DNA from: a virus
Taxonomy: Duplodnaviria; Caudoviricetes
DNA length: 59,649 nt
Strand: one strand, 5' to 3'
IMG/VR virus record: IMGVR_UViG_3300029823_000290
Location: 1 to 59,649 of that record
Below the pieces are notes generated by a model. That model was not told the origin of the DNA, ran no database searches, and worked only from the letters and a program-made list of their open reading frames with translations. Each line of letters opens with the position of its first letter. Positions within the stretch are counted from its first letter, which is position 1. This document shows, one piece after another, positions 11,260 to 32,261 of the stretch. The translations under genes were made by a program, and so were the position numbers.

Positions 11260-11482
11260 AGTTACATCTTATACAAACAGCGTTATCGCCCGTTTTCCAG
11301 ATATCTTAGAAGTATTGACGCAGCGAGATATGTCTCCTAAAGAGCTGTTTGAACTAACCACATCAGGGAAGAATGATATGGGCGATTTTCTAAGTGCTTT
11401 AGACTGCTTGTTTGCATTGGGGAAAATTGAACTAATCGATGAAGGGAGGGTACTACGCTATGTTGACAGAAATTCGATGTGA
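11243..11482 (+). CDS. ABC-three-component middle component (LmuC-like)
   Basis: MRLPNK...ALDCLFALGKIEL; 79 aa; overlaps both neighbours. Confidence 0.75.
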   Translation: MRLPNKVTSYTNSVIARFPDILEVLTQRDMSPKELFELTTSGKNDMGDFLSALDCLFALGKIELIDEGRVLRYVDRNSM

Positions 11483-13112
11483 TAAATTTGCACCTGGGCA
11501 TCAAAACATCCAATTTAATTCAGGACTTAATACGGTTTTAGGTAGTGCTGGCGGCAGTAATGCCATCGGCAAATCAACATTCCTGTGGATTATCGACTAT
11601 GCATTCGGCGGTGAAGGCTACTACACCCTTTCTGATGACATTAAAAAAGAGATCGGCCCTCATACCATTTATTTCACTTTTCAATTTGAAGGACAGCCAC
11701 ATTACTTTTACCGGAGAACCGATGAACCTAAAAATGTATATCGCTGTGATAAAGAAGGCCATTTCATTACAAAGTTGTCGCTTGATGAATTTCGGAGCTT
11801 TCTCTTTCAGGAATACAAGGTTGGACTTCCAGCCCTTACATTTTCGGAGATTACAGAGCGGTATTTTCGTATTTATGGCCGGGAAAATACACTGGAGAAG
11901 TACCCCCTGCTCGTAAAGCCTCGTGAACAGGATGAAAAAGCAGTTGATTTTCTGATGAAACTATTTGGTCACTACAATATTCTTTCTGCCATTAGGAACA
12001 TGGAGGAAGAACTTGGTGTCAAATCCTCGCAGCTTAAATCGCGTAAGCGTCAGCAGGTTGACACCGCAAAAATTGAAATGAATCAGAAGACTATAGAGTC
12101 ACTGAAGAAAAGGCTCCAGAAGCTAATGAAAAACAGTGAAGAGGCCCAATTAGCGCTGTTTGGGTTTGATACACAGACATTTGAACGGATAAAAGCGGCT
12201 CAAAAAGAGTTGAATAAATTCATCCGCAAACGCAATCGTCTGCAGTCTCAGCTTAATGCAATTTCGAGTAACATCGCTGACACTAATCCTGAAACCGCCA
12301 GTGAATTTGATTCCCTGGTGCATTTTTTCCCAAATACTGATATAAAAGCCTTCGAGGAAATTGAGCACTTTCATAAGAGAATAAGAGAAATTCTGGGCGA
12401 AGAAATGGCTCAGGAAATAGCACGTTTGCAACCGCTCATTGATCATTGCGATAAAGAAATCAAACGTTTACATCAAAAGATAGAGGAATCCGGTTTGGCA
12501 AAAGAGATGTCGGAACGAGTCCTCTCCCAATGTGTCAACGTGTCAAAAAGCATTGATAGACTAGAAGAGGAAACAGCCGAGTTGATTCACCAGAAACAAT
12601 TGCAGGAAATCCGCGCCGAAGCAGAGCACAAGCTAGAAAGACTATTGCTACAACAAACCGAGAAGCTGGAAGAAATACAGGACAACATCAACCTACGTAT
12701 GGCAACGATAAATGGTGTAGTGACTGAACACCAAGAAATAGCACCCATTCTGCAGATTACTCCCCAAAAGGAAATCACCTTCGAGACTCCTGGAAACACC
12801 AGTGAGGGTACTGCGTTTAAGAGCCTGGTGGTTTACGATTTAAGTGTGCTTGAGTTACGGCCAATCCCTGTACTCATTCATGATTCTAATATTCTCAAAC
12901 GCATTGAGGACATACACCTAGAACACATATTGGAACGTTATCAGGCCAGTGGACGACAGATCTTTATTGCGTTTGACAAAGCTGATTCTACAACCACAAA
13001 GGCACACAAGATTTTAGAAGCTACAACGATTTTGCGGTTGTCGGATGGAAATGAGCTTTTTGGTCGTTCGTGGAGTAAGCACGAAACGAATGATATTAAT
13101 GGGGGGATCTAA
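11460..13112 (+). CDS. SMC/Rad50-like ABC ATPase (DUF2326, Lamassu LmuB-like)
   Basis: Walker A NAIGKST, long coiled coil, signature SEGTAF, Walker B VLIHDS. Confidence 0.85.
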   Translation: MLTEIRCDKFAPGHQNIQFNSGLNTVLGSAGGSNAIGKSTFLWIIDYAFGGEGYYTLSDDIKKEIGPHTIYFTFQFEGQPHYFYRRTDEPKNVYRCDKEGHFITKLSLDEFRSFLFQEYKVGLPALTFSEITERYFRIYGRENTLEKYPLLVKPREQDEKAVDFLMKLFGHYNILSAIRNMEEELGVKSSQLKSRKRQQVDTAKIEMNQKTIESLKKRLQKLMKNSEEAQLALFGFDTQTFERIKAAQKELNKFIRKRNRLQSQLNAISSNIADTNPETASEFDSLVHFFPNTDIKAFEEIEHFHKRIREILGEEMAQEIARLQPLIDHCDKEIKRLHQKIEESGLAKEMSERVLSQCVNVSKSIDRLEEETAELIHQKQLQEIRAEAEHKLERLLLQQTEKLEEIQDNINLRMATINGVVTEHQEIAPILQITPQKEITFETPGNTSEGTAFKSLVVYDLSVLELRPIPVLIHDSNILKRIEDIHLEHILERYQASGRQIFIAFDKADSTTTKAHKILEATTILRLSDGNELFGRSWSKHETNDINGGI

Positions 13113-13115
13113 AAT

Positions 13116-18074: not shown

Positions 18075-18122
18075 ATCTCTATCGGTTTTAGCCTTAGCAA
18101 TACGGTGCTGGAAGGAGATTAT

Positions 18123-19850
18123 ATGAAAATAACCTATGTACGGGTTTCTAATTATAGGAATATTGATGGTATCACCGTCAACTTCCATCCGGAACATAAT
18201 TACATTATCGGAGAAAACAACCTTGGGAAAAGCAACTTTCTATCTCTCCTCAGTACTGTGTGTAGTGGTAAGGGCTTTGATGATAAGGACTTCTATAATT
18301 CTGAAAAGCCCATCGAGGTTGAAATGGAAGTCAAGTTATCGCCAAACGAACAAGGCTTCTTCGGCGACAACTTCTCCCCTGATGATGCCTCATTGGTGAA
18401 AATGCGGTATCGTCAGACGATAAAAGAGGCATACCCCACTATTGTTAGTGCCGATTCCAACGAGAGTATTCAGATAAAGCAATTAAGAAAAATCAACTTC
18501 TTGAAATATGAAACAACGTCCATTCCAAGTAGAGAGTTGCGCCTGGACACGCAGAAAGGCGCAGGCTTGCTGATTAATGGCATCATCGAGAGATTCATAA
18601 CGAGCGATGAGGAAACCCCTACCTTTCTGAATAATGAGCAGGTAGACAAATTGACGGAATTTATAAACGGGCATCTGGGCAAAATTCGCAGCTTTAGGGA
18701 TTACGCTATAAAAGCGACTGTTGCCCCTAACCCTACTGAGATGTTGACCAGCCTGTATTACCTATCAGATGGCGACAGGAAAATTGACACAACGGGTAGC
18801 GGTGTTCAGTATATGGCTATGGCTTCGATTAACATCTTATGCCAGATTATGGAGCTGTATAAAAGCAAATCTGCACCATTTAATGAACAGCTTTTCAGAG
18901 ACAATGATGGAAAAATGCTTTTACCGATTGTTCTATCAATTGATGAGCCAGAAGTTCATCTACACCCTTATCTCCAGCGTTCGCTCATTGGCTATTACAA
19001 ACGAATTCTGCAAAATGAGGATGCTGAATTTGCCGAGTTGCTGAAGCTGTGCTTCGGAATTGACGGCATTGATGGTCAGCTTATTGTTGTCACACACTCA
19101 ACAGACGCTTTGGTTGGGGACTACCGCAACCTCATCCGCTTTTATAAGGAAGAGAACAAAACGGCAGTAGTTAGTGGTGCCACACTTAGATTCACCTCAG
19201 CAAACGAGAAACATATGATTATGCGTTTCCCCGAAATAAAGGAGGCGTTTTACGCCCATTGTGCCGTGTTGATTGAGGGTGAAACCGAATATGGTTGCAT
19301 TCATAGTTTTGCCGAAAAACTTGGCGTATCGCTAGATGATTATGGCATCTGCGTTATAAATGCAAGAGGCAAAGAGTCAATCAAACCACTTCGCCAATTA
19401 CTGGAAAAATTTAAAATCCCAAGCATAGCTATCTATGACGGTGATGTTAGGACTGGACATACCCCAGCTAATAACGAGTTTTTCACACAAGAACTCTGCT
19501 TTGAAATTGAAATTGTTAAGAAACTATTTTTAAATGGTCAAACTGCCCTGGTAAGGAAAATTGCTAAGGATTTATCCAGCAATGCAGAGTCTGTCGAAAT
19601 GGATGCCGATTTCGTGCGGAAGCACTTCAAAAAGATGGGTATTGATATGACAGGCTATGTACCTAAGAAGCTATCAGATGTCAATGATGATGATGAGATT
19701 GAGTTCTGCCAAATGTACTCCGCTTGGTTTATGGCAAAGAAGGATGTTCTCCTGGGACGGATTATCGGCGAATTGCTACCAGCTGACCTCATACCTGCTT
19801 GTTATGCCGATGCAATTTTCAAGGCGCGGGAGGTGGCGAGCATTGCCTAA
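18123..19850 (+). CDS. OLD-family ABC ATPase/TOPRIM nuclease (Gabija GajA-like)
   Basis: GENNLGKS, GSGVQ, IDEPEVHLHP and VTHS motifs; TOPRIM LIEGETE and YDGD. Confidence 0.88.
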   Translation: MKITYVRVSNYRNIDGITVNFHPEHNYIIGENNLGKSNFLSLLSTVCSGKGFDDKDFYNSEKPIEVEMEVKLSPNEQGFFGDNFSPDDASLVKMRYRQTIKEAYPTIVSADSNESIQIKQLRKINFLKYETTSIPSRELRLDTQKGAGLLINGIIERFITSDEETPTFLNNEQVDKLTEFINGHLGKIRSFRDYAIKATVAPNPTEMLTSLYYLSDGDRKIDTTGSGVQYMAMASINILCQIMELYKSKSAPFNEQLFRDNDGKMLLPIVLSIDEPEVHLHPYLQRSLIGYYKRILQNEDAEFAELLKLCFGIDGIDGQLIVVTHSTDALVGDYRNLIRFYKEENKTAVVSGATLRFTSANEKHMIMRFPEIKEAFYAHCAVLIEGETEYGCIHSFAEKLGVSLDDYGICVINARGKESIKPLRQLLEKFKIPSIAIYDGDVRTGHTPANNEFFTQELCFEIEIVKKLFLNGQTALVRKIAKDLSSNAESVEMDADFVRKHFKKMGIDMTGYVPKKLSDVNDDDEIEFCQMYSAWFMAKKDVLLGRIIGELLPADLIPACYADAIFKAREVASIA

Positions 19851-21651
19851 TGCCATTCTTGCAGAACTAAAGGCAAAAATTTCAAAGCAACATGAGGGTG
19901 ATGAAAAACAACTTGAAGTTATCTTTTCAGATAGTCCACGCTTGATAGTGGAAGCACCTGCCGGGTATGGTAAGACGACCACTATGATTAGCCGCATTGC
20001 TTACCTGTACGCTTCAGGTGGCATACCAAACCCCAAGCGTATACTAGGATTAACCTTTAGCGTGAATGCCGCACTGAAAGTCAAACGGGAAGTCGCAGAG
20101 AAATTGCCCGTACTCCTTGGCGAACAAAACAGTCCGGTTGCCATAGGCGAGAAAGTAACTGTCACGAACTACCACGGGTTTTGCAAGGGGGTTTTGAAAA
20201 AGTACGGCTATCTCATCTCTGACGTATTGCGAAAAGATGTCAATCTATTCAAGGCGATCAGCGAAAGTGAAATTAGCAGACGCCAAGATCTAAATACTAC
20301 TTTATCTGCATCAGAAACCCAGCGGCTTGAAGGTATAGAAACCTCCATTAAGGCTTCCAGTGCTCCTGATGCACAGACTATACACGAATACAATGACATC
20401 GTTATCAGGAAACTCCTGCCTTTGGAATACATTACACATAACGCTGTCATTCTGTTTGTGCTGGATATTTTCGCACGCTTCCCTGAGGTAAGGAAGTTCT
20501 ATCAAAGCTACTACCCGCTACTCGTTGTCGACGAGTTTCAAGATACAAACTGCATTGCTTGGTCTTTACTAGAGTCAATGATCTCCGTCCATACCCAATT
20601 GGTTTTTCTTGGAGATCCTTTGCAGCGTATTTACGGTTTCATTGGGGCGTTGCCTGATATAATGTCTACGGCAACATCGAAATATGGTATGACCCAAATA
20701 GCACTTGTTAAGAACTACCGCTTCCGCAACAATCCGGAGATGCTTAAGCTTGACGCAAATATTAGGGCGAACGCAGCGACTTGCTTTGACCCAAAGATTA
20801 CTGATTCTGATACTGCAAGACTACCAGCATTTTGGGGGAGCACTCAGAAAGAGGAGGCGTGCAAGGTTATTGCGAAAGTACAAAGCCTTCTACAAGACGA
20901 TACGAGTAAAATAGCTATACTCTTTCGCGGACGTGGAAAAAACGCCGAAATTGTCGAAGCGGAACTTTCAAATAATAGTATCCCGTATTTCTACGGTATG
21001 TTTACTGACGAAGACTTGGATTATGTAGAATTCCACAACAAATGCCAGGAAATGTTCATCAAGAGATTTGGCAAATCTAAGAACATAAATAAGAAAGCTC
21101 TAATCGCGTTTGCTGAAAGCATTAAGACTGCTTATTCACAATCAAACATGAAGACTATTGATTCCCTGCTTTATTTGCTTGACGCTCTAGTAGAGAAAGT
21201 ATCGGTTGATTATTCTGATTTGTTGTCTGAGGACAAATACACATTGTTATTGGATATCTTTGAGAACAGACAACTAAAACAGGCAATGGAGTATGTAGAT
21301 TCTCGGGTGATACTCTCGACTGTCCATGGAGCGAAAGGGCTTGAATGGGATTATGTTATTCTTTCTGATGTTGAACAGTGGGTTTTTACTTTCTTGTGCA
21401 GAGATTGTCCAAGCTTAAGAAATACATCAAGCAGTGCATTTTGCAAACTGCCGAAAACGTTACCTGAACAAATGAAGAACCCAATATTGGACGATCTTTG
21501 CGTGTTTTATGTTGGCTTGACAAGAGCTAGAAAACAAGCATATCTTTCAGCAAGTGCTGAACGGTTTAATGCAAGAGGTCAGCGGTTCACAAACGGAAAA
21601 ATCTGCTGTTTAGCTTTGGTAGATGGTGTTAAGCTGGTGGAAGCTGATTAG
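19843..21651 (+). CDS. UvrD/SF1 helicase (Gabija GajB-like)
   Basis: TTG start after GGGAGG overlapping the OLD stop. APAGYGKTT, VDEFQD, GDPLQRIY, NYR, TVHGAKGLEWD and YVGLTRAR motifs. Confidence 0.88.
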   Translation: MPNAILAELKAKISKQHEGDEKQLEVIFSDSPRLIVEAPAGYGKTTTMISRIAYLYASGGIPNPKRILGLTFSVNAALKVKREVAEKLPVLLGEQNSPVAIGEKVTVTNYHGFCKGVLKKYGYLISDVLRKDVNLFKAISESEISRRQDLNTTLSASETQRLEGIETSIKASSAPDAQTIHEYNDIVIRKLLPLEYITHNAVILFVLDIFARFPEVRKFYQSYYPLLVVDEFQDTNCIAWSLLESMISVHTQLVFLGDPLQRIYGFIGALPDIMSTATSKYGMTQIALVKNYRFRNNPEMLKLDANIRANAATCFDPKITDSDTARLPAFWGSTQKEEACKVIAKVQSLLQDDTSKIAILFRGRGKNAEIVEAELSNNSIPYFYGMFTDEDLDYVEFHNKCQEMFIKRFGKSKNINKKALIAFAESIKTAYSQSNMKTIDSLLYLLDALVEKVSVDYSDLLSEDKYTLLLDIFENRQLKQAMEYVDSRVILSTVHGAKGLEWDYVILSDVEQWVFTFLCRDCPSLRNTSSSAFCKLPKTLPEQMKNPILDDLCVFYVGLTRARKQAYLSASAERFNARGQRFTNGKICCLALVDGVKLVEAD

Positions 21652-21776
21652 TGTCTTTGATAACGTAAAAGTTGACCACATAAGTTAAAAACGATAACGA
21701 AAAAGTTGACCACCCCAACCAACCTTTCCTGTAAGCTATGAGTTGTGCAAACACCAAAGCTGCAGGAGGAAAAGGA

Positions 21777-23303
21777 ATGATTGGGATGGCTACCAAAGAG
21801 TATATCAGGAAAATGCATTTTGTTGAAGGAGCATCCATACGTTGGATATCCAAGGAGACCGGGCATTCCCGGCAGTACATACGCAAAGTGATTGCTGAGG
21901 AAGTGCCCACCATACCCAAATACACACTGACAAAGATCAAAGAAAAGCCGGTCATGGGGCCATACCTGGACATCATCACTAGCTGGCTGCAAGAAGATGA
22001 GAACCGGCCGAAAAAGCAGCGGCACACTGCCGCTAGGATATATGAACGACTGTGTGAAGAACATAGTTTTACCGGCAGCCAATCAACTGTCAGGCACTGT
22101 GTCAGGGAAATTAAAAAGCAATTAGGGAACGATAAACAAGAAGTCTTCATTCCTTTGCAATTTGAACTTGGCAGCCACGCTCAGGTAGACTGGGGTGAAG
22201 CCGAGGTCATTTTGCAGAGTAAAAGCCAGAAGGTCTATCTTTTCGTGATGAAACTATCGGGTAGCCGCGACCCGTTCATGGTAGCCTTTCCCTCAGCCCG
22301 TCAGGAGGCATTTTTTGAAGGTCACAAGCAGGCTTTCGAATACTTCAGGGGAATCCCTAAAACTATCGTATACGACAATCTGAAAACTGCGGTAGCCCGA
22401 GTATTACAGGGAAAGGATCGTAAAGAACAGGATGCCTTTATGGCCTTCAAAGCCCATTACCTTTTCGAGGCTGAGTTCTGTAATGTGAGGCGGGGAAATG
22501 AAAAAGGCCAGGTCGAAAACGAGGTAGGCTATCTTAGACGAAACATCCTGGTTCCTATCCCCGAGGTAGCTTCCCTTGAAGAGCTAAACCAGTTGATACT
22601 GATGAAGCTTTCAAAGTTACGCCAGACCAGGATAGTACCTCATACTAAAAAGACTATTGCGGAGGTGTTTCAAGAGGAGAAACAATTGTTGCTGCCCCTG
22701 CCCCGGTACCCCTTTGACTGTTGTGTAGTGGTGCCTGCCAAAAGCTCCAAGGAAAGCACGGTGCGTTTTGATAACAACCGTTATTCAGTACCCAGTCGTT
22801 ATGCCCGGTGCCGGATACATATCAAAAGCTATGTAAATGAAGTCCACATCTTCTACGAAGACCAGTTGATAGCAGTTCATCCTCGTTGTTACGAGCGAGG
22901 CCAGGATATACTCGACCTAAGTCACTATCTTGATGTACTGGAGCGCAAGCCATACGCCCTAAACCACGCCAAGGCTTTCAAAGAGGCGGGCTTGCCGGAG
23001 ATATACCACCAGTACCTGGCTATACTCAGACAAAAGAACGATAAAGCCAACCTTGAGTTTGTAAAAATACTAAAACTTAGAGTTAAACATGGGCCGGAGG
23101 TGATTGATGAAATTCTGCAAATGGCCATGGACTGTTCCGTTTATCACTATGATGGCATTAAAGCCCTGTTCGACAGCTTTGCTGCGGCAGAATACTCGCC
23201 CTGTAGCATGAGCTGGGAACAGGTAAAGGACATATCTGAATTTAGCGTCAAACCGCCCAATCTCAGTTGCTTTGACCAACTTTTAAAGGGAGGTGCAGCA
23301 TAG
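21777..23303 (+). CDS. istA: IS21 transposase IstA
   Basis: QRHTAARIYERL, AQVDWGE, YDNLKTAV, EKGQVE and DNNRYSVP motifs. Confidence 0.95.
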   Translation: MIGMATKEYIRKMHFVEGASIRWISKETGHSRQYIRKVIAEEVPTIPKYTLTKIKEKPVMGPYLDIITSWLQEDENRPKKQRHTAARIYERLCEEHSFTGSQSTVRHCVREIKKQLGNDKQEVFIPLQFELGSHAQVDWGEAEVILQSKSQKVYLFVMKLSGSRDPFMVAFPSARQEAFFEGHKQAFEYFRGIPKTIVYDNLKTAVARVLQGKDRKEQDAFMAFKAHYLFEAEFCNVRRGNEKGQVENEVGYLRRNILVPIPEVASLEELNQLILMKLSKLRQTRIVPHTKKTIAEVFQEEKQLLLPLPRYPFDCCVVVPAKSSKESTVRFDNNRYSVPSRYARCRIHIKSYVNEVHIFYEDQLIAVHPRCYERGQDILDLSHYLDVLERKPYALNHAKAFKEAGLPEIYHQYLAILRQKNDKANLEFVKILKLRVKHGPEVIDEILQMAMDCSVYHYDGIKALFDSFAAAEYSPCSMSWEQVKDISEFSVKPPNLSCFDQLLKGGAA

Positions 23304-24064
23304 TAGACATTGAGGCAAGGCTCAAGGAATATATTAAGACTTTAAAACTACCTACTGTTGGCCAGAACTATCAAGAACTGGCTCGGCAAGCGGAAAGCGA
23401 GTGCTTAAGCTATGAAGAATACCTTCTTAATCTTCTGGAACGCGAGGTGAATAAACGAGAAGAAAACCAGGTAAGAAGGTTAATCAACCAGGCTAGGTTT
23501 CCCTTGAAAAAGACTCTGGACAGCTTTGATTTCGAGCAAATACCAAGCCTTAACCAACCCAAAGTACTAACCCTTTCCCGGGGCCAATTCATAAAGGACA
23601 AGGAGAATGTTATCCTGGCTGGCAACTCCGGTACCGGCAAAACCCACTTGGCAATAGCCCTGGGCATCTGTGCCTGCCAGTTGCGCTACAAGGTTGGATT
23701 TTACACAGCCGCCGGATTGGTGAATGAGTTGACTGAAATGGAGAGTGAGAAAAGGCTACTAAAATACCAGAAACAATGGCTGCGCTACGATTTAGTCATC
23801 GTTGATGAGCTTGGCTATATCCCGTTTAACCGCCGTTCAGCAGAACTTCTGTTTCAATTCTTTTCTAGCCGTTATGAAAGAGGCAGTATGATCATTACCA
23901 CCAACCTTGAATTCTCCGAGTGGAATCAGATCTTTGGTGATGAAAAGATGACTGCGGCTCTTTTGGATCGGATTACCCATAACGCCCATATCCTGATTAC
24001 CAACGGCGAGAGTTTCCGGCTCAAACAGACCGTGAAGAGGCAGCGTCAGTCACGACCCGCCTAA
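23300..24064 (+). CDS. istB: IS21 helper ATPase IstB (in-frame start after the RBS is ATA)
   Basis: GNSGTGKTHLA, VDELGY, RYERGS, ITTNL and LDRITH motifs; frame open from 23300 with the N-terminal LKLP motif. Confidence 0.9.
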   Translation: MVDIEARLKEYIKTLKLPTVGQNYQELARQAESECLSYEEYLLNLLEREVNKREENQVRRLINQARFPLKKTLDSFDFEQIPSLNQPKVLTLSRGQFIKDKENVILAGNSGTGKTHLAIALGICACQLRYKVGFYTAAGLVNELTEMESEKRLLKYQKQWLRYDLVIVDELGYIPFNRRSAELLFQFFSSRYERGSMIITTNLEFSEWNQIFGDEKMTAALLDRITHNAHILITNGESFRLKQTVKRQRQSRPA

Positions 24065-24162
24065 CCATTATTTTTTTACCCTGGGTGGTCAACTTTTTCA
24101 TGAGCGCGGTGGTAAACTTTTTAATTGACAAAGACAATTAGTGGTGATTTAGGATATATTTC

Positions 24163-24230
24163 AACGATTATCCCTAACTTTAAACGATTACCGGTTGGTA
24201 ATGCACACCCCTGCAAAATTTTAACGATTA
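24163..24230 (+). repeat. Three AACGATTA direct repeats
   Basis: Copies start at 24163, 24183 and 24223. Confidence 0.6.
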
Positions 24231-24356
24231 TTCCAATCAACCTCAACGGAAAACGGACGGATTAAATTTCGTTAGCACCAAATAACCCGCCAGAAATCGA
24301 GAAAGCCGCTCCGCTAAAACTCAGGAACGGCTTTATTGTCAGCTTTTCAGGCAATA

Positions 24357-24400
24357 TAAAAACCACCCACCGATAAAATTCTTTTTATCAATAGATGGTA
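24357..24400 (-). terminator. Terminator-like hairpin downstream of the displaced ssrA 3' end
   Basis: Minus strand ACCATCTATTGATAAAA/TTTTATCGGTGGGTGGT (G-U-rich stem) followed by TTTT. Confidence 0.6.
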
Positions 24401-24406
24401 GATAAT

Positions 24407-24421
24407 CTGGTGGAGGCGGGG
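24407..24421. repeat. Left attachment junction (duplicated ssrA 3' end)
   Basis: CTGGTGGAGGCGGGG is identical to 59572-59586. Confidence 0.9.
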
Positions 24422-24518
24422 CGTACCCAGTAGTATGCAGAAATATAATAAAAGCTGCTAAAGAGTTGCCTATTCCCTTTATATCAGCATTAGTAACCTA
24501 TCCGCCAGATCAATTCTC

Positions 24519-25520
24519 CTATTGAACCAAGTGCTTTCTATAAGCCTCCCGTTTTTTACTTTCACTCACCTGGGCATACACCTGCGTTGTGGCTGGATCG
24601 GAATGGCCCAGGAGTGCTTGAACGCTGGACAGATCAGCTCCGTTGTTGAGTGTCAAGGTCGCGAACGTATGCCTGAACGTATGCGGATGAATACTTTTTT
24701 GAATTCCCGTTCTGGCGGCTATAACTTTAATAGCCCGTTGGATAGCTCTATTGGATACTCGCCTGTATGGCCGCCGCTCGGTGATAAATAGAGCCGGTTC
24801 ATCGTCTAGGCGTTGCAGCACATACTTTTTGAGATGATATAAGGCCTTGTAGCTCAGATACACTTCGCGCTCTTTATTTCCTTTGCCGATTACGCGTGCG
24901 CTCATGGCCTGGTAGTTTATATCGGATTTGTTCAGTGCTTCGATTTCTGATAACCTACCTCCCGTAGCGTAGAATACTTCGACTAGAGCTCTTTCTCGGG
25001 GAGTTATGCAGGACTCCCGTATCATTTCTAACTCCTCAATAGTTAGGGCTTTGGGCAATCGTTGCTCCTTTTTGGGCGGTTTAATTCTACGAACTGGATC
25101 TTTTGCTATAATCTCTTCATCGGCCAACCAAGCGAAAAAGGACTTCAGGACGGAAAGTTTCTTCGAGACCGAGGACATTTTAAGATTTTCGAAATGGCTT
25201 AGGTAATCCCTGATGTCTGTGGTAGCTATTTGGTTAATTGGCGTGGAAACGTACTGAGAGAATATACGGAGCTCCAGAGCGTAATCCTTCATAGTTAGCT
25301 CTGATAAGCCCTCTAATCTTTTTGCTGATAGGAACTGGTCTGCCTTATCCCTAATATCAGGATGCGCTCCTGGCAGTCTAGCTAACTGGATGTCATACAA
25401 AGACAATATCCCTGTTAAAGTCATATGTAGCTTTATAAAAGGAATGTCGAAACATAAATCAGAAATGGACGTTTCAAGTTGGGTAAGCAGTTGCTCCCCA
25501 ACCTGGGTGGAATATGACAT
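24519..25520 (-). CDS. XerD-like tyrosine recombinase
   Basis: TGGRLSE, GKGNKER, HPHTFRHTFAT and LLGHSDPATTQVY motifs. Start MSYSTQ after GGGAGG. Confidence 0.92.
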   Translation of the reverse strand: MSYSTQVGEQLLTQLETSISDLCFDIPFIKLHMTLTGILSLYDIQLARLPGAHPDIRDKADQFLSAKRLEGLSELTMKDYALELRIFSQYVSTPINQIATTDIRDYLSHFENLKMSSVSKKLSVLKSFFAWLADEEIIAKDPVRRIKPPKKEQRLPKALTIEELEMIRESCITPRERALVEVFYATGGRLSEIEALNKSDINYQAMSARVIGKGNKEREVYLSYKALYHLKKYVLQRLDDEPALFITERRPYRRVSNRAIQRAIKVIAARTGIQKSIHPHTFRHTFATLTLNNGADLSSVQALLGHSDPATTQVYAQVSESKKREAYRKHLVQ

Positions 25521-25630
25521 ATATGATACCTCCCGTATGGTATTTTTGACCCCGTAGAAAAGATGCAAAGCAGGTGGTGCCTACGGGAGCACCAAGTTGG
25601 GGAGCTACCCCAACTCTTTTACCTGCTTCT
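25521..25630 (-). ncRNA. Structured cis-regulatory leader RNA of the XerD-like gene
   Basis: Three-way junction (25568-25628) plus an SD hairpin; begins just after an extended -10 TGGTATGAT. Confidence 0.6.
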
Positions 25631-25667
25631 ATCGTATCATACCACGAAACCAGTAACAATATAAATC

Positions 25668-25681
25668 CGAACATTCGTTTC
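25668..25681. promoter_or_regulatory. LexA/DinR (SOS) box
   Basis: CGAACATTCGTTTC versus the Firmicutes consensus CGAACRNRYGTTYC (1 mismatch); adjacent to the -35 region of the recombinase promoter. Confidence 0.65.
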
Positions 25682-25716
25682 TAAAAAATCAATTTTAAGA
25701 TTTATTAATTTAGGTA

Positions 25717-25745
25717 TTGCCTTTTATTTAATAAAGGTATATACT
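25717..25745 (+). promoter_or_regulatory. SigA promoter of a two-gene moron
   Basis: TTGCCT-17 bp-TATACT, with a palindromic spacer. Confidence 0.7.
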
Positions 25746-25772
25746 TATATTAAAGAAGATATTAGAGAGGAT

Positions 25773-25964
25773 GTGAATAGCATGTATAAACTTATAGGGG
25801 CAATTACTCTACTGCAGCGGGAAATTGCAGAATATAAAGAGTTATTTGAATCTGCTACGCTGGACGGTTATGATATTGATATAATTATTAAAAGGATTGA
25901 CGATTTTAGTGATATGCTGTGTGATTATAATAATAGGATTTTAGATTCATATCCAGAGGAGTAG
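25773..25964 (+). CDS. Small acidic hypothetical protein (moron)
   Basis: GAGAGG RBS, GTG start, AT-rich, oriented opposite to the late genes. Confidence 0.6.
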   Translation: MNSMYKLIGAITLLQREIAEYKELFESATLDGYDIDIIIKRIDDFSDMLCDYNNRILDSYPEE

Positions 25965-25966
25965 TT

Positions 25967-26152
25967 ATGGTAAGAAAAGAGAAAATTAAACATCCTGGAC
26001 CTGGCCGACCGGCCATGTCTGAAGATGAAAAACGCCGGCCCCGGAGTTTTAAGGCTACAGATGAAGAATGGCAAAAAATGCAGAGCCTTGCCGATCAAGA
26101 AGGAATCAGTGTCGCAGAGTTAATAAGGCAGAGAGTATTGGGGGCTGATTAG
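25967..26152 (+). CDS. Ribbon-helix-helix (CopG/MobC-like) DNA-binding protein
   Basis: GPGRP...RSFKATDEEWQKMQSLADQEGISVAELIR; followed by the hairpin GGGGGCT...GGCCCCC. Confidence 0.75.
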   Translation: MVRKEKIKHPGPGRPAMSEDEKRRPRSFKATDEEWQKMQSLADQEGISVAELIRQRVLGAD

Positions 26153-26183
26153 GCCCCCGTAGATCCGGATCATCTCCTCTCGA

Positions 26184-26384
26184 TCAGTACCCGATAGCTA
26201 CACCTACGACCGTGACCAGAGCTGCCAGACCGTTGGCAATACTATTGACCTGGTCATCTGATACCAGTTGTAACCCAAAGGCATCTGTGACCAATTTAGC
26301 GGCTCCTAAAAGAGCCACGTAAAAAGCCGGCTTGCATAGCCGGCTGTAGAGCTTTTCTTTATTATCTTTTTGCTTTTCATCCAT
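26184..26384 (-). CDS. Phage holin
   Basis: 66 aa with two hydrophobic helices; directly after the endolysin. Confidence 0.75.
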   Translation of the reverse strand: MDEKQKDNKEKLYSRLCKPAFYVALLGAAKLVTDAFGLQLVSDDQVNSIANGLAALVTVVGVAIGY

Positions 26385-26386
26385 TT

Positions 26387-27079
26387 TTATTTCCCTCCAA
26401 ACGCTTTATAAAGAATCAATACAACTTGCTCCTTGGTAATTGTCTGTTTGGGATTATTGTCGGCGATTAGCCCCTTCGATACCGCCCATTCCCAGGCCGT
26501 ATTTGCCCATTCCGATACAGTATTGTCCACCGTTTTTACCTCCTTTTTGATTCCAAAGTAATCTAAAACTCCATCCGCAATTGCCTGAGCTATTTTCATA
26601 TGCGTCTCAGACTGCCGGAGCTGTTTTTCCTGATCTGGGTTGCTTATAAAACCGCACTCACACAAAATAGCAGGCATTTTGGTCTCTCTGGTCATGTGCA
26701 GATTTTTTACCCGGATACCACCATCCGGCCAGGTTGTGGCCTGCACTAACTTATTTTGCACCTTTCCAGCCAATTTCTCGGCCTCACCGCCCTGAGCCTG
26801 GATAAATGTTGATATGTAATTTGCCTGCTGGCTGCCGGCCGAATTACAGTGCACTGATATGGCCAAATCGCATTTCATGTTATTTATAAGCGATGACCGG
26901 GTTATGAGCTCCATGGTGCGATCGTCTGACCGGGTCATAAAGGTTTCTATGCCAGCAGCCTGCAATAGTCTGTCCAGTTCCCTCGAGATGGCCAGCGTCA
27001 CATCTTTTTCATACAACCTAGTGGGGCCTATCGCTCCCGGGTCAGCACCGCCGTGTCCTGGGTCTATTCCGATTTTCAT
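26387..27079 (-). CDS. N-acetylmuramoyl-L-alanine amidase endolysin with an SLH-like C-terminus
   Basis: IDPGHGGADPGA, ISVHCNS and AILCECGFISN motifs; WANTAWEWAVSKGLI...PKQTITK. Confidence 0.92.
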   Translation of the reverse strand: MKIGIDPGHGGADPGAIGPTRLYEKDVTLAISRELDRLLQAAGIETFMTRSDDRTMELITRSSLINNMKCDLAISVHCNSAGSQQANYISTFIQAQGGEAEKLAGKVQNKLVQATTWPDGGIRVKNLHMTRETKMPAILCECGFISNPDQEKQLRQSETHMKIAQAIADGVLDYFGIKKEVKTVDNTVSEWANTAWEWAVSKGLIADNNPKQTITKEQVVLILYKAFGGK

Positions 27080-27096
27080 AAAATCACCTTACCTTT

Positions 27097-27276
27097 CTAT
27101 CGCCCTGCAAACCAACCTACAGAAGCAGTTAAAATAGCTATTAAGACTGTAGCCCAGTTTGGTAGGCGATTGGTTAATTGATCCTTAATTTCCTTCATAT
27201 CATTTTTGAGCTCAGTAACATCATTGAATAGTGTTTTGATCTGCTCCTGCAACCGGGCTACTTCTTGATCCGCCAA
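27097..27276 (-). CDS. XhlA-like membrane lysis accessory protein
   Basis: Coiled coil plus a C-terminal TM helix; upstream of the endolysin. Confidence 0.65.
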   Translation of the reverse strand: MADQEVARLQEQIKTLFNDVTELKNDMKEIKDQLTNRLPNWATVLIAILTASVGWFAGR

Positions 27277-27411
27277 TATCATCTCCTCCCATCCCAATAA
27301 GATAGCCGCTCTAAAATCCCAATCGCTTGGTAATTTATTGAGCGGCTTTTGTCTAAAACCTACTTATAATATAAGTACTAAAAGAACAAATCCTTGCTGC
27401 GCATAATTAGT

Positions 27412-27666
27412 CTACTGCGTAACAAACTCCACTTCTTCTGTATCGGGATTTATTCGATATCCTCTACAAATTGCGAAGCTATCGCTTAATTCTCCGAAGG
27501 TGAGTTGTTTAACCCCTAAATGTTCCGGTGCAATTAATGTCAATACTGGCATTACTTCCATATCCTGCTCCAGCGTGGTTTCTACCACATCGCCTTCCAT
27601 TTGGCCTTTATCCCAAATCACAACGCCATTCGTTTTCTTATAATATATTTTTCGTCCTATTTGCAT
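27412..27666 (-). CDS. Tail-fibre assembly chaperone-like protein
   Basis: MQIGRKIYY...GYRINPDTEEVEF; follows the fibre gene. Confidence 0.65.
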   Translation of the reverse strand: MQIGRKIYYKKTNGVVIWDKGQMEGDVVETTLEQDMEVMPVLTLIAPEHLGVKQLTFGELSDSFAICRGYRINPDTEEVEFVTQ

Positions 27667-27677
27667 TTCATTACCTC

Positions 27678-28853
27678 CTATTCAAAAGCATACCAATAAT
27701 ATGTATTTGTATAACCAACTGGTAAACAAAAACCAGTACTATTAACATACATAGGTGCATCAGCAATTACATAAGAATAATATTCATCACAAATATAATG
27801 TAAATTATTGTTAGCTGTCTTAATTACTCCAGCAGCTTGATAAATTACAGGTTTTGTATATGATGATGTTCGGTCAACTACTAGAATTGTTGAAGGAGTA
27901 AATGTTAGTCCTGAAACAGTAACAACATATTTATCATAAGTACTTGAAGAGGTGTTATGATATCCCTGAATACTATAGGTAGTACTGCCTCGCGAAATAG
28001 TCCCACTTGCAAACTTTTTCATCCCCGAACCATCGACCGCATTACCGGCTACCCCAAAAATACTCTTCCCAGACAGGATATTTGCCGCCAGCAAGTTTGC
28101 GTCACCTCTAACAGTTTGAGCACCACTTAAATATTGCCCTGCCGATATAACTTGATTTGTAGTAGTAGGTGTATAGGTTTGAGCAGATTTGCTTGGAATA
28201 GTACCCGTAATTTCTCCCGCATCCGTTGTCGCTGTTTTGCCGGAAAGTATGTCAGCAGGCGTAGCATTTCCGGCAGCGTCGCTACCCTGTAGTGTAAAAT
28301 TTGTACCATCGTACCTCAATGTGTAGATACCATTAGCTTTTAGGTTTGTAACATCGGTACCATTGGCCTTTTTTATTCCTTTTGCACCCAATCCGTTTAT
28401 GTTGATAGTAGATGCACCGGTACTGTCTACATTAATCTTTACCGCAAGTGCCATACCTGCAACCAAAGACGTTGGTGTGGGGCTGAGAGTTACAGCATAG
28501 GTATTGGCACTACCACTTGCTACTGCATATGGTACGTGTTGCGTTTCATCAGCCTGATGCGCATCAAGCCCTTCCTGCAGAGCAGTGATATCCTCTCGGC
28601 CGGCGGCGGCCAGCACCCAGGCTGTACCGGTATCGAGATAAATTTCACCGGTGTCCTGGGCAAAATAATACCGGCCGGCCACTCCGGCAGCCGGTCGATC
28701 GGCTAGGGTGCCACCGGTCAGCTCCGCAATGCCGTTACCTTTTTTGACGGCATTGGCGTCCATGATTTCTAGGTTTTCGTTATAGGTAGCTCTGGATACG
28801 GTTTCAGTACCAAGTGGCTTTTTCAAGCCCAGATTAGGGGTTATATCAGGCAT
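27678..28853 (-). CDS. Tail fibre/receptor-binding protein
   Basis: TPNLGLKKP N-terminus; GSANTY...TININGLGAK; DILSGK/NILSGKSIFGVAG repeats; AT-rich variable tip. Confidence 0.85.
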   Translation of the reverse strand: MPDITPNLGLKKPLGTETVSRATYNENLEIMDANAVKKGNGIAELTGGTLADRPAAGVAGRYYFAQDTGEIYLDTGTAWVLAAAGREDITALQEGLDAHQADETQHVPYAVASGSANTYAVTLSPTPTSLVAGMALAVKINVDSTGASTININGLGAKGIKKANGTDVTNLKANGIYTLRYDGTNFTLQGSDAAGNATPADILSGKTATTDAGEITGTIPSKSAQTYTPTTTNQVISAGQYLSGAQTVRGDANLLAANILSGKSIFGVAGNAVDGSGMKKFASGTISRGSTTYSIQGYHNTSSSTYDKYVVTVSGLTFTPSTILVVDRTSSYTKPVIYQAAGVIKTANNNLHYICDEYYSYVIADAPMYVNSTGFCLPVGYTNTYYWYAFE

Positions 28854-29412
28854 CTATCCAACCTCCCAGTTCAAATTCGTTCCAGGCCAGGCTTTTCACG
28901 TCCAGTTCATCCCAAGTTAGATTTTTCGCATCCAACTCGGACCAAAGCAAATAGCGCAACAGATAACTCACGGCCAGGTGGGCGGGTATAATCTCGGCTA
29001 TGGCGGCTTGCAAGTCAGTGTAGTTCGGCGGTATGCCATGCTGGTCCACAAATGTAATCACCATGCTATACTCAGTCGGCAGTTCCTCTACCTCTACAGT
29101 TCCATTGGCATAACTCTCAGCTACATTTTTGATCATCTCCACCGTAACGGTACCTACCCCGCGTAACTTTGAGATGATGCGGCTGCGGCGCTGGTCATCT
29201 GGCTTACCAGCATAACTATCCAAGCCCAAAAATTCTTCCCACCTAGCTAATCCCCAGGTGGCCGTGTGTATAAAAAACTGCTCAAGGATACTGACGATAT
29301 TATCCCGAAGCGAATCAAACTCGCTGCCCTGGCTATCAATTATCGCGGCATACTCCGGTGCTGTAAGCAGGTACCGGGGCACGTATCCCCGCATGACCTC
29401 AGTTCTACTCAC
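28846..29412 (-). CDS. YmfQ/DUF2313 (XkdU-like) baseplate protein
   Basis: QFFIHTATWGLARWE, RRSRIISKLRG and IIPAHL motifs. Confidence 0.85.
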   Translation of the reverse strand: MSRTEVMRGYVPRYLLTAPEYAAIIDSQGSEFDSLRDNIVSILEQFFIHTATWGLARWEEFLGLDSYAGKPDDQRRSRIISKLRGVGTVTVEMIKNVAESYANGTVEVEELPTEYSMVITFVDQHGIPPNYTDLQAAIAEIIPAHLAVSYLLRYLLWSELDAKNLTWDELDVKSLAWNEFELGGWIDA

Positions 29413-30457
29413 TTAGCGTCACCGTCCCCAACACCGCTATCTGCCCGGATGCCATCTCAATATTGCTTATGCCTCCGTTTACGGTCAAATCGGCATAGTC
29501 GATAATTGGCGGGATATCCAGCAGTACCGCCGCAATACGTGTATAGCGCACCAACGGATCCTTAAAGGCGATACTATCTAGATAGGCAGTTACGCCTTCA
29601 ATCACCAACTGCTCTACTTCAACCAGCGTGGTATAGCTGGCCAGGGTAAGCTGAGCGCTGATATTAATTGCTACCCCTGACGCCGCTACCACGGTAACTG
29701 TTGCCCCAACCGGCCGAACCGTTTCGATATAATCGGTTACGGCAGTCACGATAGCCGCGTCAGGCGGCTGCTTGTCTGTGTCCAGGATGACCACTTTAAC
29801 CGTTCCCGGGCCGTCCCAGATTGGGTATACTTTTGCATCTCCTACTCCCGGTACTTCTAGCGCCCATTGCCGGTAGTGCGCAGTATTACCGGATGTGGCC
29901 GGGGATTGGACCTTGTATAGAATCCGTTCTAGCAGAGCGGTATCGGTTTCTTGGTCAGTCCCGCCAATAGTAGCCTCGGTGTTGCTAACGGCTGTCACCC
30001 CGGCGATTGATACCGGCAGAGCTGTTATCGCTCCGGCCAGCACATTGCCGGCTGCCCCCGCCTTCACCGCCTCTATATCCGCCAATACCGTCCCCGCTTC
30101 CCCGATCTTTACCTCGGCAGTTGTTGCGAACTGCAACCCGGCACCGGTGGCAACTAATGCGCCTGCGGGGATAATTGCTCCGCTGGTGCCGGTAATGGTT
30201 ACCTCCCCGGTGGCCTTGCCGGCTGCCTTCCGGGTTAGTCCGTGTTCAGCCGCCCGGTAATCTAGGTATTGCCCGTAGGTGGTCTGAGCAAATCCATACT
30301 GCAGTACTAAGTCCATCTCTGCATAGGCCTGGGCCAATTCCAGAGCAGTCGGCGAGAGGGCATCCCAAATAAATGACCCCTCGCGTTTGTCCAGATCTCC
30401 AGGTACCGCCGCCAAGAGCCTAGTCATAATCGCACCATAAGTCTGGGCCTCAAACAC
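29405..30457 (-). CDS. Baseplate J-like protein (XkdT-like)
   Basis: DKREGS, GQYLD, GGTDQETD, SGNTAHYRQWA and GPGTVKV motifs. Confidence 0.92.
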   Translation of the reverse strand: MFEAQTYGAIMTRLLAAVPGDLDKREGSFIWDALSPTALELAQAYAEMDLVLQYGFAQTTYGQYLDYRAAEHGLTRKAAGKATGEVTITGTSGAIIPAGALVATGAGLQFATTAEVKIGEAGTVLADIEAVKAGAAGNVLAGAITALPVSIAGVTAVSNTEATIGGTDQETDTALLERILYKVQSPATSGNTAHYRQWALEVPGVGDAKVYPIWDGPGTVKVVILDTDKQPPDAAIVTAVTDYIETVRPVGATVTVVAASGVAINISAQLTLASYTTLVEVEQLVIEGVTAYLDSIAFKDPLVRYTRIAAVLLDIPPIIDYADLTVNGGISNIEMASGQIAVLGTVTLSE

Positions 30458-30884
30458 TATATGTCACCCCCTGGATTAACGTCTGCCCGTCAAAGGTTAT
30501 AACCGAAAACTCTACCAACAAATAATTACTCTCCCGGGTAATGATAAAATCCCGTATATCATTTATACGTTCATCATAAATAAGCGCCTCGCGAATAACC
30601 CGGGGTATCTCAGATTCCAGCACCACCCTGGGAATGTCATAGCCTATTACATCCTCTATCTCGCAACCGTAATTGAAAGAGTAGATAGGAAACCGGTACC
30701 GAGCCGTCAGCAGAGTCTTGGTGATCCATATCCGGAGTGCGTCAGGACCTTCCAAGACCCGGGGAGTTCCATCTATCAGAACAAATTGCCCGGTAGTAAA
30801 ATCAAAGTCCAGCTCCCTGCCATATGTAACAGTGCTGGACTGAGTGGTAATCTCCGGTATAGTAATGTCAGGGAAAATGCTCAT
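30450..30884 (-). CDS. DUF2634 (XkdS-like) baseplate protein
   Basis: WITKTLLTARYRFPIYSFNYGCE and EALIYDERI motifs. Confidence 0.88.
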   Translation of the reverse strand: MSIFPDITIPEITTQSSTVTYGRELDFDFTTGQFVLIDGTPRVLEGPDALRIWITKTLLTARYRFPIYSFNYGCEIEDVIGYDIPRVVLESEIPRVIREALIYDERINDIRDFIITRESNYLLVEFSVITFDGQTLIQGVTYSV

Positions 30885-31276
30885 GATAGGATCACCACCT
30901 TATCCCAGATTAGATATTGCTGGCCGCCAGATAGCGCCATCACTGCAACTCTATCCCCTGACTTTAACTTGCCATGGATGTTTACTGTCTGCTTGATTGC
31001 AGTGATGCTAGTAACCTCATGGCTATGTGTATGCAAAGGTGGTGATGTATCTTGCCACTGAGTTATAGCACCACTTACCTGAGAAGTAGTGTTATATTGC
31101 CGGGTGTGATCTATAACATGCTCACAGATTAGGAGATCCCCGTCCTTTGCGCTGAGCATCATCTTATCATTATCCAGCCTGATCACCAGCGGCTCAGCCT
31201 GTACCACTGTGGCCAACTCTATACCTGGCACCGCTGGTATCTGTCCTCTGAAAACATCAAGTATATCACTGCTCAT
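30881..31276 (-). CDS. DUF2577 (XkdR-like) spike/baseplate protein
   Basis: ATVVQAEPL...LKSGDRVAV...GGQQYLIWDKV; HTH metal-site motif. Confidence 0.82.
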   Translation of the reverse strand: MSSDILDVFRGQIPAVPGIELATVVQAEPLVIRLDNDKMMLSAKDGDLLICEHVIDHTRQYNTTSQVSGAITQWQDTSPPLHTHSHEVTSITAIKQTVNIHGKLKSGDRVAVMALSGGQQYLIWDKVVILS

Positions 31277-32261
31277 CGTCTTTCGAGGCCTCCTTTGTTG
31301 CGACAATTGTTTCCAGACTGAGTACCAGGCGCATGGTATGGTTGCCGTTTTTTAGCTCATGCTGGTCCTGGAGAACATAATACTGACCAGTGATACCGGT
31401 CAGGGTTTCTTTTATTTCTACATTTTTTCCGGCTTCTACATCATCAATTCCAACAGCCGTAACCTCCAGGTTCTCTGATACCTTTGCCAGTTCTTTCAGT
31501 AGATTTTGAGCAATTACCTGAGCTTCACCTGTCTTGATATTGCTTTCTCGTTTGTACTCTTGCAGCATCCCATACTGCTGTATCAAACTATCATTTTTCA
31601 AGTCCGCAAGGATCTGATCTTTATCACCAACAATTACAACCTGGTTTCGCATATCGCTAAGGCTCTCTGATTTGGACGCTTCCATGAGATTTTGACCCTC
31701 AGTTATGATCCACTTAAGCACCTGTTTGCCCTTTTCTTCGGTATTGAGCTTACCTTGCCTCATTATTAGGTGATATTTTTTTCCATTTCGCTTTGTAGCT
31801 TCCGTGAGCACTACCACGGCCATATCGTATAGCGTATGGTCTCGTAGTATAAGCTTAGCTAAATTAACGCCTGTAGAAGCCAGTGAGCCGATGTTTATCC
31901 CGAAGTCGTTACATATTTTGGTTATGATTGCTTCCGGAGTCATGTTCACAAATTTATATGTGCTGACATTATTGGTCAGATAGATCGCATGGTCGAAACA
32001 AGTAATGAGAGCGGATCCCTGGGTACTTTTGTTGACATCCCATACAACGCCGCGAAAAAGCTCCGTGTCATTTTTCAATATGATCACGGAGCCAAGAGGT
32101 GGAATATATTTAGGTGCGTAATAGTCTCGGCTATATGCGATTTCCAGTTCCAACTTTCTGGCAGCTTCCCGGACGTCTCCTCCCCAGGTTATGGTACTGA
32201 CTACCTGGCTGATATCGTACTGGGCACCATCTCGAGTAAAATTTGTTATGGTATAGCTCAC
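31266..32261 (-). CDS. XkdQ-like baseplate hub protein
   Basis: ITWGGD..AARKL, LFRGVV, ICNDFGI and YGMLQ motifs. Confidence 0.85.
   Translation of the reverse strand: MSYTITNFTRDGAQYDISQVVSTITWGGDVREAARKLELEIAYSRDYYAPKYIPPLGSVIILKNDTELFRGVVWDVNKSTQGSALITCFDHAIYLTNNVSTYKFVNMTPEAIITKICNDFGINIGSLASTGVNLAKLILRDHTLYDMAVVVLTEATKRNGKKYHLIMRQGKLNTEEKGKQVLKWIITEGQNLMEASKSESLSDMRNQVVIVGDKDQILADLKNDSLIQQYGMLQEYKRESNIKTGEAQVIAQNLLKELAKVSENLEVTAVGIDDVEAGKNVEIKETLTGITGQYYVLQDQHELKNGNHTMRLVLSLETIVATKEASKDDEQ

Follow-up and report, generated by a model that had tools for sequence, protein, structure and literature searches.

The window, a term used here for the whole 59,649-nt stretch of viral DNA that was analysed (IMG/VR record IMGVR_UViG_3300029823_000290), carries on its minus strand a gene for an Xer-like tyrosine recombinase and, directly in front of it, a structured leader. 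Minus-strand positions 25681–25518 comprise the promoter and an approximately 110-nt 5′ leader of this monocistronic gene, whose ATG lies at 25520 (Table 1). In the leader, a helix termed P1 closes two hairpins, P2 and P3, to form a three-way junction. The loop of P3, termed L3, is complementary to two sites further downstream, S1 and S2, the second of which runs into the Shine–Dalgarno (SD) sequence and is enclosed by a fourth helix, P4. A preliminary description of the sequence had listed a LexA box, an extended −10 element, the three-way junction, a loop complementary to the SD region, a decoy of that region (S1) and a hairpin around the SD, all of which were found in place. The window leader has a minimum free energy of −45.9 kcal/mol as opposed to a shuffle mean of −33.3 kcal/mol (z = −3.58; 0 of 200 shuffles as stable). 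Its L3 forms 9 bp with S1 (G·U allowed; −13.8 kcal/mol) and 8 bp with S2 (−16.3 kcal/mol), and P4 contributes −4.1 kcal/mol.

Table 1. Positions of the leader elements, the recombinase genes and the prophage ends in the window.
Feature	Position	Strand	Sequence and remarks
Predicted LexA (Cheo-type) box	25680–25669	−	AAACGAATGTTC (AAAC-GAAT-GTTC); 3′ end 4 nt upstream of the −35 position
Weak −35	25664–25659	−	TTATAT
Extended −10	25644–25636	−	TGgTATGAT
P1, 5′ arm	25628–25621	−	AAGCAGGT; partner is 25575–25568
P1, 3′ arm	25575–25568	−	ACCTGCTT
Junction P1/P2 (J1/2)			UAAAAG
P2 hairpin	25615–25608 + 25602–25595	−	AGTTGGGG-TAGCT-CCCCAACT; loop of 5 nt
Junction P2/P3 (J2/3)			single U
P3 hairpin	arms 25593–25589, 25580–25576	−	GGTGC-TCCCGTAG-GCACC
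Loop L3	25588–25581, plus closing C at 25589	−	TCCCGTAG; proposed anti-SD element
S1 ("decoy")	25557–25550	−	CTACGGGG; single-stranded, complementary to L3; begins 25 nt upstream of GGAGG
A-rich linker	25549–25538	−	TCAAAAATACCA; includes the P4 5′ arm
S2	25537–25530	−	TACGGGAG; overlaps the SD GGAGG (25533–25529)
P4 hairpin around S2	25543–25539 / 25530–25526	−	ATACC / GGTAT
Xer-like tyrosine recombinase, family A	24519–25520	−	333 amino acids (aa), N-terminal extension of ~55 aa
15-nt att core	24407–24421	−	displaced copy of the 3′ end of transfer-messenger RNA (tmRNA); prophage end adjoining the recombinase gene
Second 15-nt att core	59572–59586	−	in the 3′ end of the tmRNA gene (59573–59649), which is cut by the window end
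Large serine recombinase	58059–59645	+	phrog_95 integrase, E 2.7e-109; CcrB-like; open reading frame (ORF) crosses the att core

The recombinase exhibits a Phage_integrase domain (E 1.3e-35) and SAM-like N-terminal domains (1.9e-12 and 8.3e-12), and the catalytic-type motifs GGR, GKGNK, HxxR, LLGH and VY are visible by eye in an alignment of two recombinase families, A and B, to the first of which it belongs. With 235.4 bits it passes the cut-off of XerA_Arch (NF040815; 220), and it misses both equivalog cut-offs, of XerC (225.3 vs 335.15) and of XerD (217.3 vs 329.6). The cut-off of the integron integrase model TIGR02249 is not reached either (117.8 vs 265 bits).

Close homologues of the recombinase (51–82% identity), identified in protein-guided scans, are found mostly in Syntrophomonadaceae genomes and viral contigs. 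The same leader stands at 6 of the 13 closest loci and amounts there to five distinct leaders, L002 being identical to L082. The homologue at L006 (Syntrophomonas wolfei subsp. methylbutyratica), whose match starts only at residue 92, looks truncated and is without a leader. A pattern scan of viral contigs returned 25 stretches with 9 true leaders, and a scan of metagenomes returned at least 114, where 6 of the 114 listed were judged true by the covariance model and two or three of these six lay on contigs already known. Searches with the covariance model, arranged around one related genome, G001, yielded hits in 6 of 107 members of its family, in 6 of 125 of its class and in 2 of 151 genomes of a phylum sample. 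A further model (R2) reached no further than the first (R1), and a second pattern lacking P1 left out most true leaders, as its gap minimum was 6 and their gap is 5; its four stretches were two known leaders and two unrelated sequences. The first collection thus comprised 19 distinct leaders, and six more (L251, L252, L255/L261, L256, L262 and L265) came from a scan that used the shorter family of recombinases. All 25 lie directly upstream of the start of a recombinase of family A (333 aa) or family B (279 aa), which are 40% identical over their common part, and the distance from leader to start codon is constant. Across the related loci, no neighbouring gene besides the recombinase itself is conserved. 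No DNA match to named phages was found; the best protein matches there are approximately 37% identical and their leaders differ.

The fold is supported by covariation. P2 and P3 inside P1 are formed in all of the first 19 leaders, and in an alignment of these fitted to the structure model (A2), 96.1% of the cells are standard pairs as opposed to 27–49% when the partners are slid by one to three columns. Changes on both sides of a pair are observed for 6 of 6 pairs in P2, 5 of 5 in P3 and 2 of 8 in P1, whose cells are 99.3% paired, and the covariation score was reached by none of 500 shuffles. The cells of P2 comprise 99 Watson–Crick and 15 G·U pairs and those of P3 78 and 17, with no A·C in either helix; in total, the non-Watson–Crick cells of P2 and P3 are 32 G·U and 0 A·C, which assigns the fold to RNA of the sense strand. 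Variants of P1 occur among the leaders found through the protein, namely GAAGCAGACA / UGUCUGCUUC in L252 and GGCAUGA / UCAUGCC in L265, together with G·U variants in L255, L256 and L262. The junction strands vary, with UAAAAG, CUAG or CAGAGAA between P1 and P2 and 0–1 nt or GAAA between P2 and P3. P4 is predicted in all of the first 19 leaders, which places S2 in a hairpin loop, and in L255 its arms read ACCAA / UUGGU instead of AUACC / GGUAU, a compensatory change as judged by eye. A MAFFT alignment (A1) put P2 and S1 out of register, and the pseudoknot pairs were counted by script instead. The automatic P1 finder misread L001, L243 and L262; L243 was taken from an earlier pairing count and S2 of L262 was located by eye.

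L3 and its two partner sites vary jointly. In each of the first 19 leaders, L3 has at least seven contiguous pairs (G·U allowed) with both S1, which begins 21–30 nt upstream of GGAGG, and S2, which begins 4–6 nt upstream of GGAGG and extends over part of it. In the full set, both sites are complementary to L3 in 24 of 25 leaders across ten loop types (CCCGUAG, CCCUGAG, CCUGGAG, CCUGCAG, CCCCUGA, CCCGCAG, CCUGGGAG, CCCUGGG, CCUUGGG and CCUGUUU), and S1 and S2 both change along with each type. The complementarity of loop and SD, on whose conservation the preliminary description had made its reading depend, is therefore conserved, with loop, decoy and SD site changing together. When only Watson–Crick pairs are counted, L3 forms on average 7.42 and 7.26 bp with its own S1 and S2, as opposed to 4.26 and 4.68 bp for loops of other types, and none of 2000 permutations of the loops among the sequences reaches the observed pairing sums. 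The mean duplex energies in the 19 leaders are −14.6 kcal/mol for L3:S1 and −15.0 kcal/mol for L3:S2, the stronger partner being S2 in 11 leaders and S1 in 7, with one tie. The coding region of the window recombinase contains three more L3-complementary sites (9, 8 and 7 nt), one of them at 24971–24956; none of these is present in the other loci of the same loop type.

It could be argued that the inverted repeats act as DNA, either as a recombination site or as an operator for the adjacent recombinase, with L3, S1 and S2 as accessory protein-binding repeats. Such an arrangement occurs in single-recombinase Xer systems whose recombination site is adjacent to the gene. P2 indeed resembles two 7–8-bp arms around a 5–9-nt centre beside an Xer-like gene, and symmetric protein binding would also give covariation of the arms. 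However, repeats in double-stranded DNA should show G·U and A·C cells alike, S2 always overlaps the SD and the spacing from promoter to P1 is fixed. Furthermore, canonical copies of the Rfam motif int-alpA, which have the same layout (see below), precede genes that do not encode recombinases, and the same L3 type precedes the family A recombinase of the window and the family B recombinase of L097, which are only 40% identical, so that the L3/S1/S2 triplet does not track protein specificity. Owing to the asymmetry between G·U and A·C cells and the position of S2 on the SD, the DNA-site explanation is rejected as extremely improbable. Near-perfect palindromes with arms of approximately 11 nt around AGCGCT were found directly after the family B stop codon at L118 (5235–5264) and L101. 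They have the shape of an Xer-type site, and neither locus contains a second copy. No recombination site downstream of the recombinase gene is shared among the compared loci.

Upstream of the leader, the promoter is conserved as well. The TGnTAnnnT element is located at −17 from AGCAGG in 15 of the 19 leaders. The distance between the end of the −10 and P1 is 7 nt throughout, from which P1 is inferred to be the start of the transcript (~25629–25628). A box of the form NAAC-N4-GTTN precedes AGCAGG by 53–55 nt, likewise in 15 of 19 leaders. The Cheo-type LexA operator of Firmicutes has the consensus GAAC-N4-GTTC, and boxes of the same kind are found upstream of the −10 at the host lexA gene in both related genomes (GAAC-ATGT-GTTT in G001 and GAAC-ACCT-GTTT in G003), lexA being the gene examined there. 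These host boxes support the reading of the leader box as a predicted LexA operator, as the preliminary description had suggested for the window. Other operators occur in its place: by eye, an inverted repeat around CGGAATAGCG replaces it in L118, L256, L262 and L265, and AACTAACG repeats replace it in L251, L255 and L261. With at least three operator types upstream, the leader appears as a module joined to different operators.

The earlier surmise that the leader corresponds to a catalogued orphan motif is borne out in part. The window leader itself matches no family of Rfam 15, with only noise matches nearby, and int-alpA (RF02996) does not match it even at E ≤ 10; among 20 short related loci searched against int-alpA at that threshold, 17 are without a match, the stretch of the window (L235) being one of them. 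Two relatives, however, pass the int-alpA gathering score of 35.8, namely L111 (= L248) with 35.9, which emerged from a scan of ten related loci, and L262 with 36.5; L251 scores 31.3. The int-alpA consensus shows the same P1–P2–P3 junction, a P3 loop containing CCU and a tail ending in AgGG that matches S1; the SD lies beyond the end of the model. Its junctions, CUAG between P1 and P2 and GAAAA between P2 and P3, are not those of the window, and consensus-like junctions (CUAG and GAAA) occur in L097, L102, L107, L111, L115 and others. Searches with RF02996 gave hits in 1 of 107 genomes of the family, 1 of 151 genomes of the phylum sample and 0 of 14 control genomes. The genome G001 contains two canonical copies (47.3 and 33.5 bits), both of which have an S1 and an S2 complementary to L3, and a start codon 10–11 nt beyond the end of S2; the genes that follow encode a Cys-rich 186-aa protein and a 237-aa protein, neither of which is a recombinase. 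These copies (G001:C26:108119–108186 and 113001–113074; L276 and L277) lie 5 kb apart on one strand and each has its own loop/S1/S2 code. No int-alpA match was detected in the intA-alpA region of E. coli K-12 at E ≤ 0.1. The motif is a candidate from a survey of 224 motifs, where it was found in no passage of the main text (PMC5737381). A literature search, which did not cover supplements, returned no paper characterising the motif, and the name was encountered only in a table of Rfam matches and as a gene order.

The int-alpA motif thus resembles the window leader in its three-way junction, pyrimidine-rich P3 loop, purine-rich site in the 3′ tail and location near integrase-type genes. It is unlike the window leader in that the Rfam model has no LexA box, P4 or S2 and that the junctions differ. 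The window element is best filed as a divergent variant of the int-alpA-type leader.

A cis-acting translational gate, built on this divergent int-alpA-type leader, is the likely function of the element. Transcription would be released in the SOS response through the box just upstream of the −35. The transcript would begin at the 5′ arm of P1 and fold into the three-way junction in which P1 closes P2 and P3. L3 (CUCCCGUAG in the RNA) would act as an anti-SD element with two mutually exclusive downstream partners, S1 (CUACGGGG), which would sit in a single-stranded linker, and S2 (UACGGGAG), which would be displayed in the P4 loop and cover the SD at its first bases. If L3 paired with S2, in a kissing or pseudoknot contact, this contact and P4 would together bury the SD and block initiation; if it paired with S1, in an H-type pseudoknot, the SD would stay accessible. 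S1 is made before S2 and is single-stranded, so that a new transcript may be open at first and become closed afterwards. Since the two pairings are nearly equal in energy, the leader resembles a translational gate or timer more than a fixed block. The SD of this type of gene may be masked in more than one way, judging from the 37%-identical Xer-like gene of Clostridium phage phiCp-D (L245, 4877–4916), where no three-way junction is present but a hairpin, AATCACCTTAGG / CCTGAGGTGATT, contains the SD in its 3′ arm.

Several points weigh against the proposed gate. With partners of nearly equal energy, neither state stands out as the default, and the analysis revealed no trigger. Comparison bears directly on the structure, its conservation and its covariation, and only through these on an effect on translation, on LexA binding, on the start site and on the order of folding. 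The alignment A2 was fitted to the structure model and so leans towards the structure. That P1 and GGAGGTAT do not vary in many of the first 19 leaders is in part a product of the pattern scans, which required those words, and variation in P1 is seen only in loci found through the protein. As the sequences are related, the shuffle and permutation tests overstate their independence. L265 was admitted by reading only (model R1 gives 13.9 bits, E 0.27, and R2 nothing at E ≤ 0.1), and in L262, S2 has only five contiguous pairs by eye, with no S2 duplex of at least 6 bp listed. Four of the first 19 leaders lack the LexA-type box, as do all six later ones when judged by eye. The RNA run X8 contributed only two 151-nt contigs inside the coding region, which do not cover the leader and are uninformative on its expression. 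Finally, Rfam types RF02996 as "Gene; sRNA" and not as a cis-regulator. Together with the end of the Rfam model at S1, before the SD, this classification would suit a three-way junction that is a free-standing small RNA (sRNA) gene and lies upstream of integrase-like genes by chance. Against such a gene stand the lack of a terminator between P1 and the start codon in the window leader, the constant distance from leader to start codon, and the conservation of S2 and P4, whose covariation with L3 extends as far as the SD in 24 of 25 leaders; a free-standing sRNA is accordingly considered very unlikely.

A different role for the same elements is suggested by the P2 loops. Palindromes of at least 6 nt are present in 15 of 19 P2 loops, as opposed to 12% of composition shuffles, and are built on five hexamers (UAGCUA, UGAUCA, UCAUGA, UAAUUA and UCGCGA); palindromes of 6–8 nt in loops of 7–9 nt are found in L002, L004, L097, L107, L111, L115, L118, L240 and others. 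The central two bases of such a hexamer are unable to pair within one hairpin. The leaders might therefore act between RNA molecules, pairing through their P2 loops while L3 reaches S1 or S2 of the partner, in which case translation would depend on transcript dose, as in an SOS burst, and the different loop types would insulate it from related phages in the same cell. The ten L3 types in otherwise similar leaders would fit such an arrangement, as would the genome G003, which carries two leaders differing both in L3 type and in P2 palindrome. However, a 6-nt palindrome is missing from four of 19 leaders, only a few distinct hexamers occur, palindromes could reflect how hairpins arise, and pairing in cis alone accounts for the covariation of L3, S1 and S2. 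The feature is weak or lost in the window, where the 5-nt P2 loop contains only the 4-nt palindrome AGCU and falls short of the 6-nt palindrome in a loop of 8–9 nt taken as the mark of a self-complementary kissing-loop site. Action between molecules is thus improbable. The bold form of this idea, that transcripts pair via a self-complementary P2 loop and that the coded L3, with its ten types, acts on the S1 or S2 of the partner as an RNA–RNA recognition module, is given little credence and is kept apart from the gate in cis on account of the AGCU loop of the window. If it were true, translation of the recombinase would require its transcript to exceed a threshold, as in an SOS burst, related phages could share one cell without cross-regulation, and the whole int-alpA family would be a modular, address-coded translational gate on several phage genes.

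The balance between the two pairings of L3 also bears on the possibility of a sensor, in which a metabolite, the recombinase or another phage protein would bind the junction or the P2 loop and select L3:S1 or L3:S2. A three-way junction with two balanced pairings has the architecture of an input-dependent switch, and the strand GAAA(A) between P2 and P3 recurs in one subclass and in the int-alpA consensus. The junction sequences are nevertheless not conserved across the family but differ between subclasses, for which reason no sign of a ligand pocket is seen. No Rfam riboswitch family is matched, and the downstream genes, recombinases in one case and unrelated phage genes after the canonical copies in the other, suggest no common metabolite. 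A sensor is regarded as unlikely.

The gate in cis would control a recombinase that is probably not the integrase of its prophage. The insertion site of the prophage is the 3′ end of a tmRNA gene, and a 15-nt direct repeat marks its two borders (Table 1). Contigs of DNA runs continue from 24421 into the tmRNA body, corresponding to the empty attB, and from 24408 into sequence like the right end of the phage, corresponding to the circular-form (attP) junction of a related phage. At the end opposite to the Xer-like gene, a large serine recombinase adjoins a module of repressor and ImmA-like protease as well as the tmRNA junction. Its ORF crosses the att core, so that integration changes the C-terminus, the protein being 543 aa long in the attP form and 528 aa in the prophage. 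The reconstructed attP contains a dyad centred in the 15-nt core with 15 of 17 symmetric positions, 9–25 nt from the centre. On this sequence evidence, the large serine recombinase is the probable integrase. The Xer-like gene, which follows the lysis genes as a cassette of its own, abuts the att core and was considered as the integrase, a role for which the serine integrase module and the attP dyad make it the weaker candidate.

In relatives, the recombinase gene is located among tail-fibre and lysis genes, and a terminator-like hairpin follows its stop codon in most loci (by eye). Another integrase candidate is present in 4 of 6 records (the window and five related ones): two of the five related records contain a large serine recombinase, one contains further tyrosine recombinases and one, rated 100% complete, has the Xer-like recombinase as its only integrase-type gene. 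Terrisporobacter phage TPELB_ph1 carries a 37%-identical gene among tail-fibre and lysis genes together with a 1584-nt gene annotated as integrase, and in phiCp-D the Xer-like gene occurs together with ParM. The earlier suggestion of a second recombinase, beside a serine integrase, is plausible in the light of the 528-aa serine recombinase with its attP dyad and of the gene pair in TPELB_ph1. A switch inverting tail-fibre genes was also considered as a target and discarded, as no inverted repeats of at least 18 nt were found in window positions 24000–32000 or near the gene in five loci.

The remainder of the window contains several further features. Two small ORFs lie between the lysis genes and the leader (25773–26152, plus strand), of which one encodes 63 aa without a family match and the other a 61-aa ribbon-helix-helix (RHH) or Arc-like protein. 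Outside the prophage, a defence-island-like block occupies 10021–21651 (plus strand) and encodes an ABC-3C CTD11 protein, a DUF2326 protein, a DNA methylase with a ResIII/SNF2 helicase, and a pair that we take to be Gabija-like, an OLD-TOPRIM ATPase with a UvrD helicase after it. This block is followed by an IS21-family istA/istB pair at 21738–24064. A second phage-like stretch spans 1–9200 (minus strand) and includes an Amidase_3 gene (731–1438) and a gene for a DUF2800 / PD-(D/E)XK protein (7093–8220).

As an Rfam entry, int-alpA has no assigned function, and the comparative data provide a testable mechanism in which one loop has two balanced partners, one of them the ribosome-binding site. 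They further extend the family to a subclass which the Rfam model misses and which is tied to a LexA-type box and to the accessory Xer-like recombinase of Syntrophomonadaceae-type phages. If the proposed gate is correct, it would show how temperate phages hold a second recombinase silent until induction, and the ten natural loop/site codes on one scaffold would make it a compact, re-addressable translational gate.

Among known systems, an orphan motif near integrase genes calls to mind STAXI, a pseudoknotted motif that occurs near XerDC-type integrase genes in two or three tandem repeats (PMC2864571). The STAXI model matches neither the window nor the 20 related loci, and its tandem pseudoknots differ from the single three-way junction of the window leader; it may be the motif alluded to in the preliminary description. 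A further motif, Lacto-int, is tabulated without an Rfam number.

Leader structures that sequester the SD include the expression platforms of small pseudoknot riboswitches and the fold-back of the transposase ribosome-binding site in insertion sequence (IS) elements. As in these, a cis-acting element at the 5′ end of the messenger RNA pairs with the SD region and would block the 30S subunit. In contrast to them, the anti-SD is held in a loop by a three-way junction, a second and isoenergetic partner (S1) is available, and no sign of a ligand pocket is seen. The c4 antisense RNA of phages P1 and P7 lies on the same transcript as its target and has loops complementary to sets of a and b sites, one of which is at a ribosome-binding site. 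In c4 as in the present leader, a change of the loop from one related phage to another is accompanied by a change of the sites; there is, however, one loop here and not two, and a recombinase would be regulated instead of an antirepressor operon. The Rfam C4 family has no match in the window.

Genes of the tisB type are SOS-induced and have a translationally gated primary transcript, and integron integrases are LexA-controlled tyrosine recombinases. Although the RNA architecture is a different one, no antisense partner is known to exist and the recombinase is not an integron integrase, the leader resembles both systems in the predicted control of a potentially harmful gene by LexA and would share with the tisB type a second, post-transcriptional layer of control.

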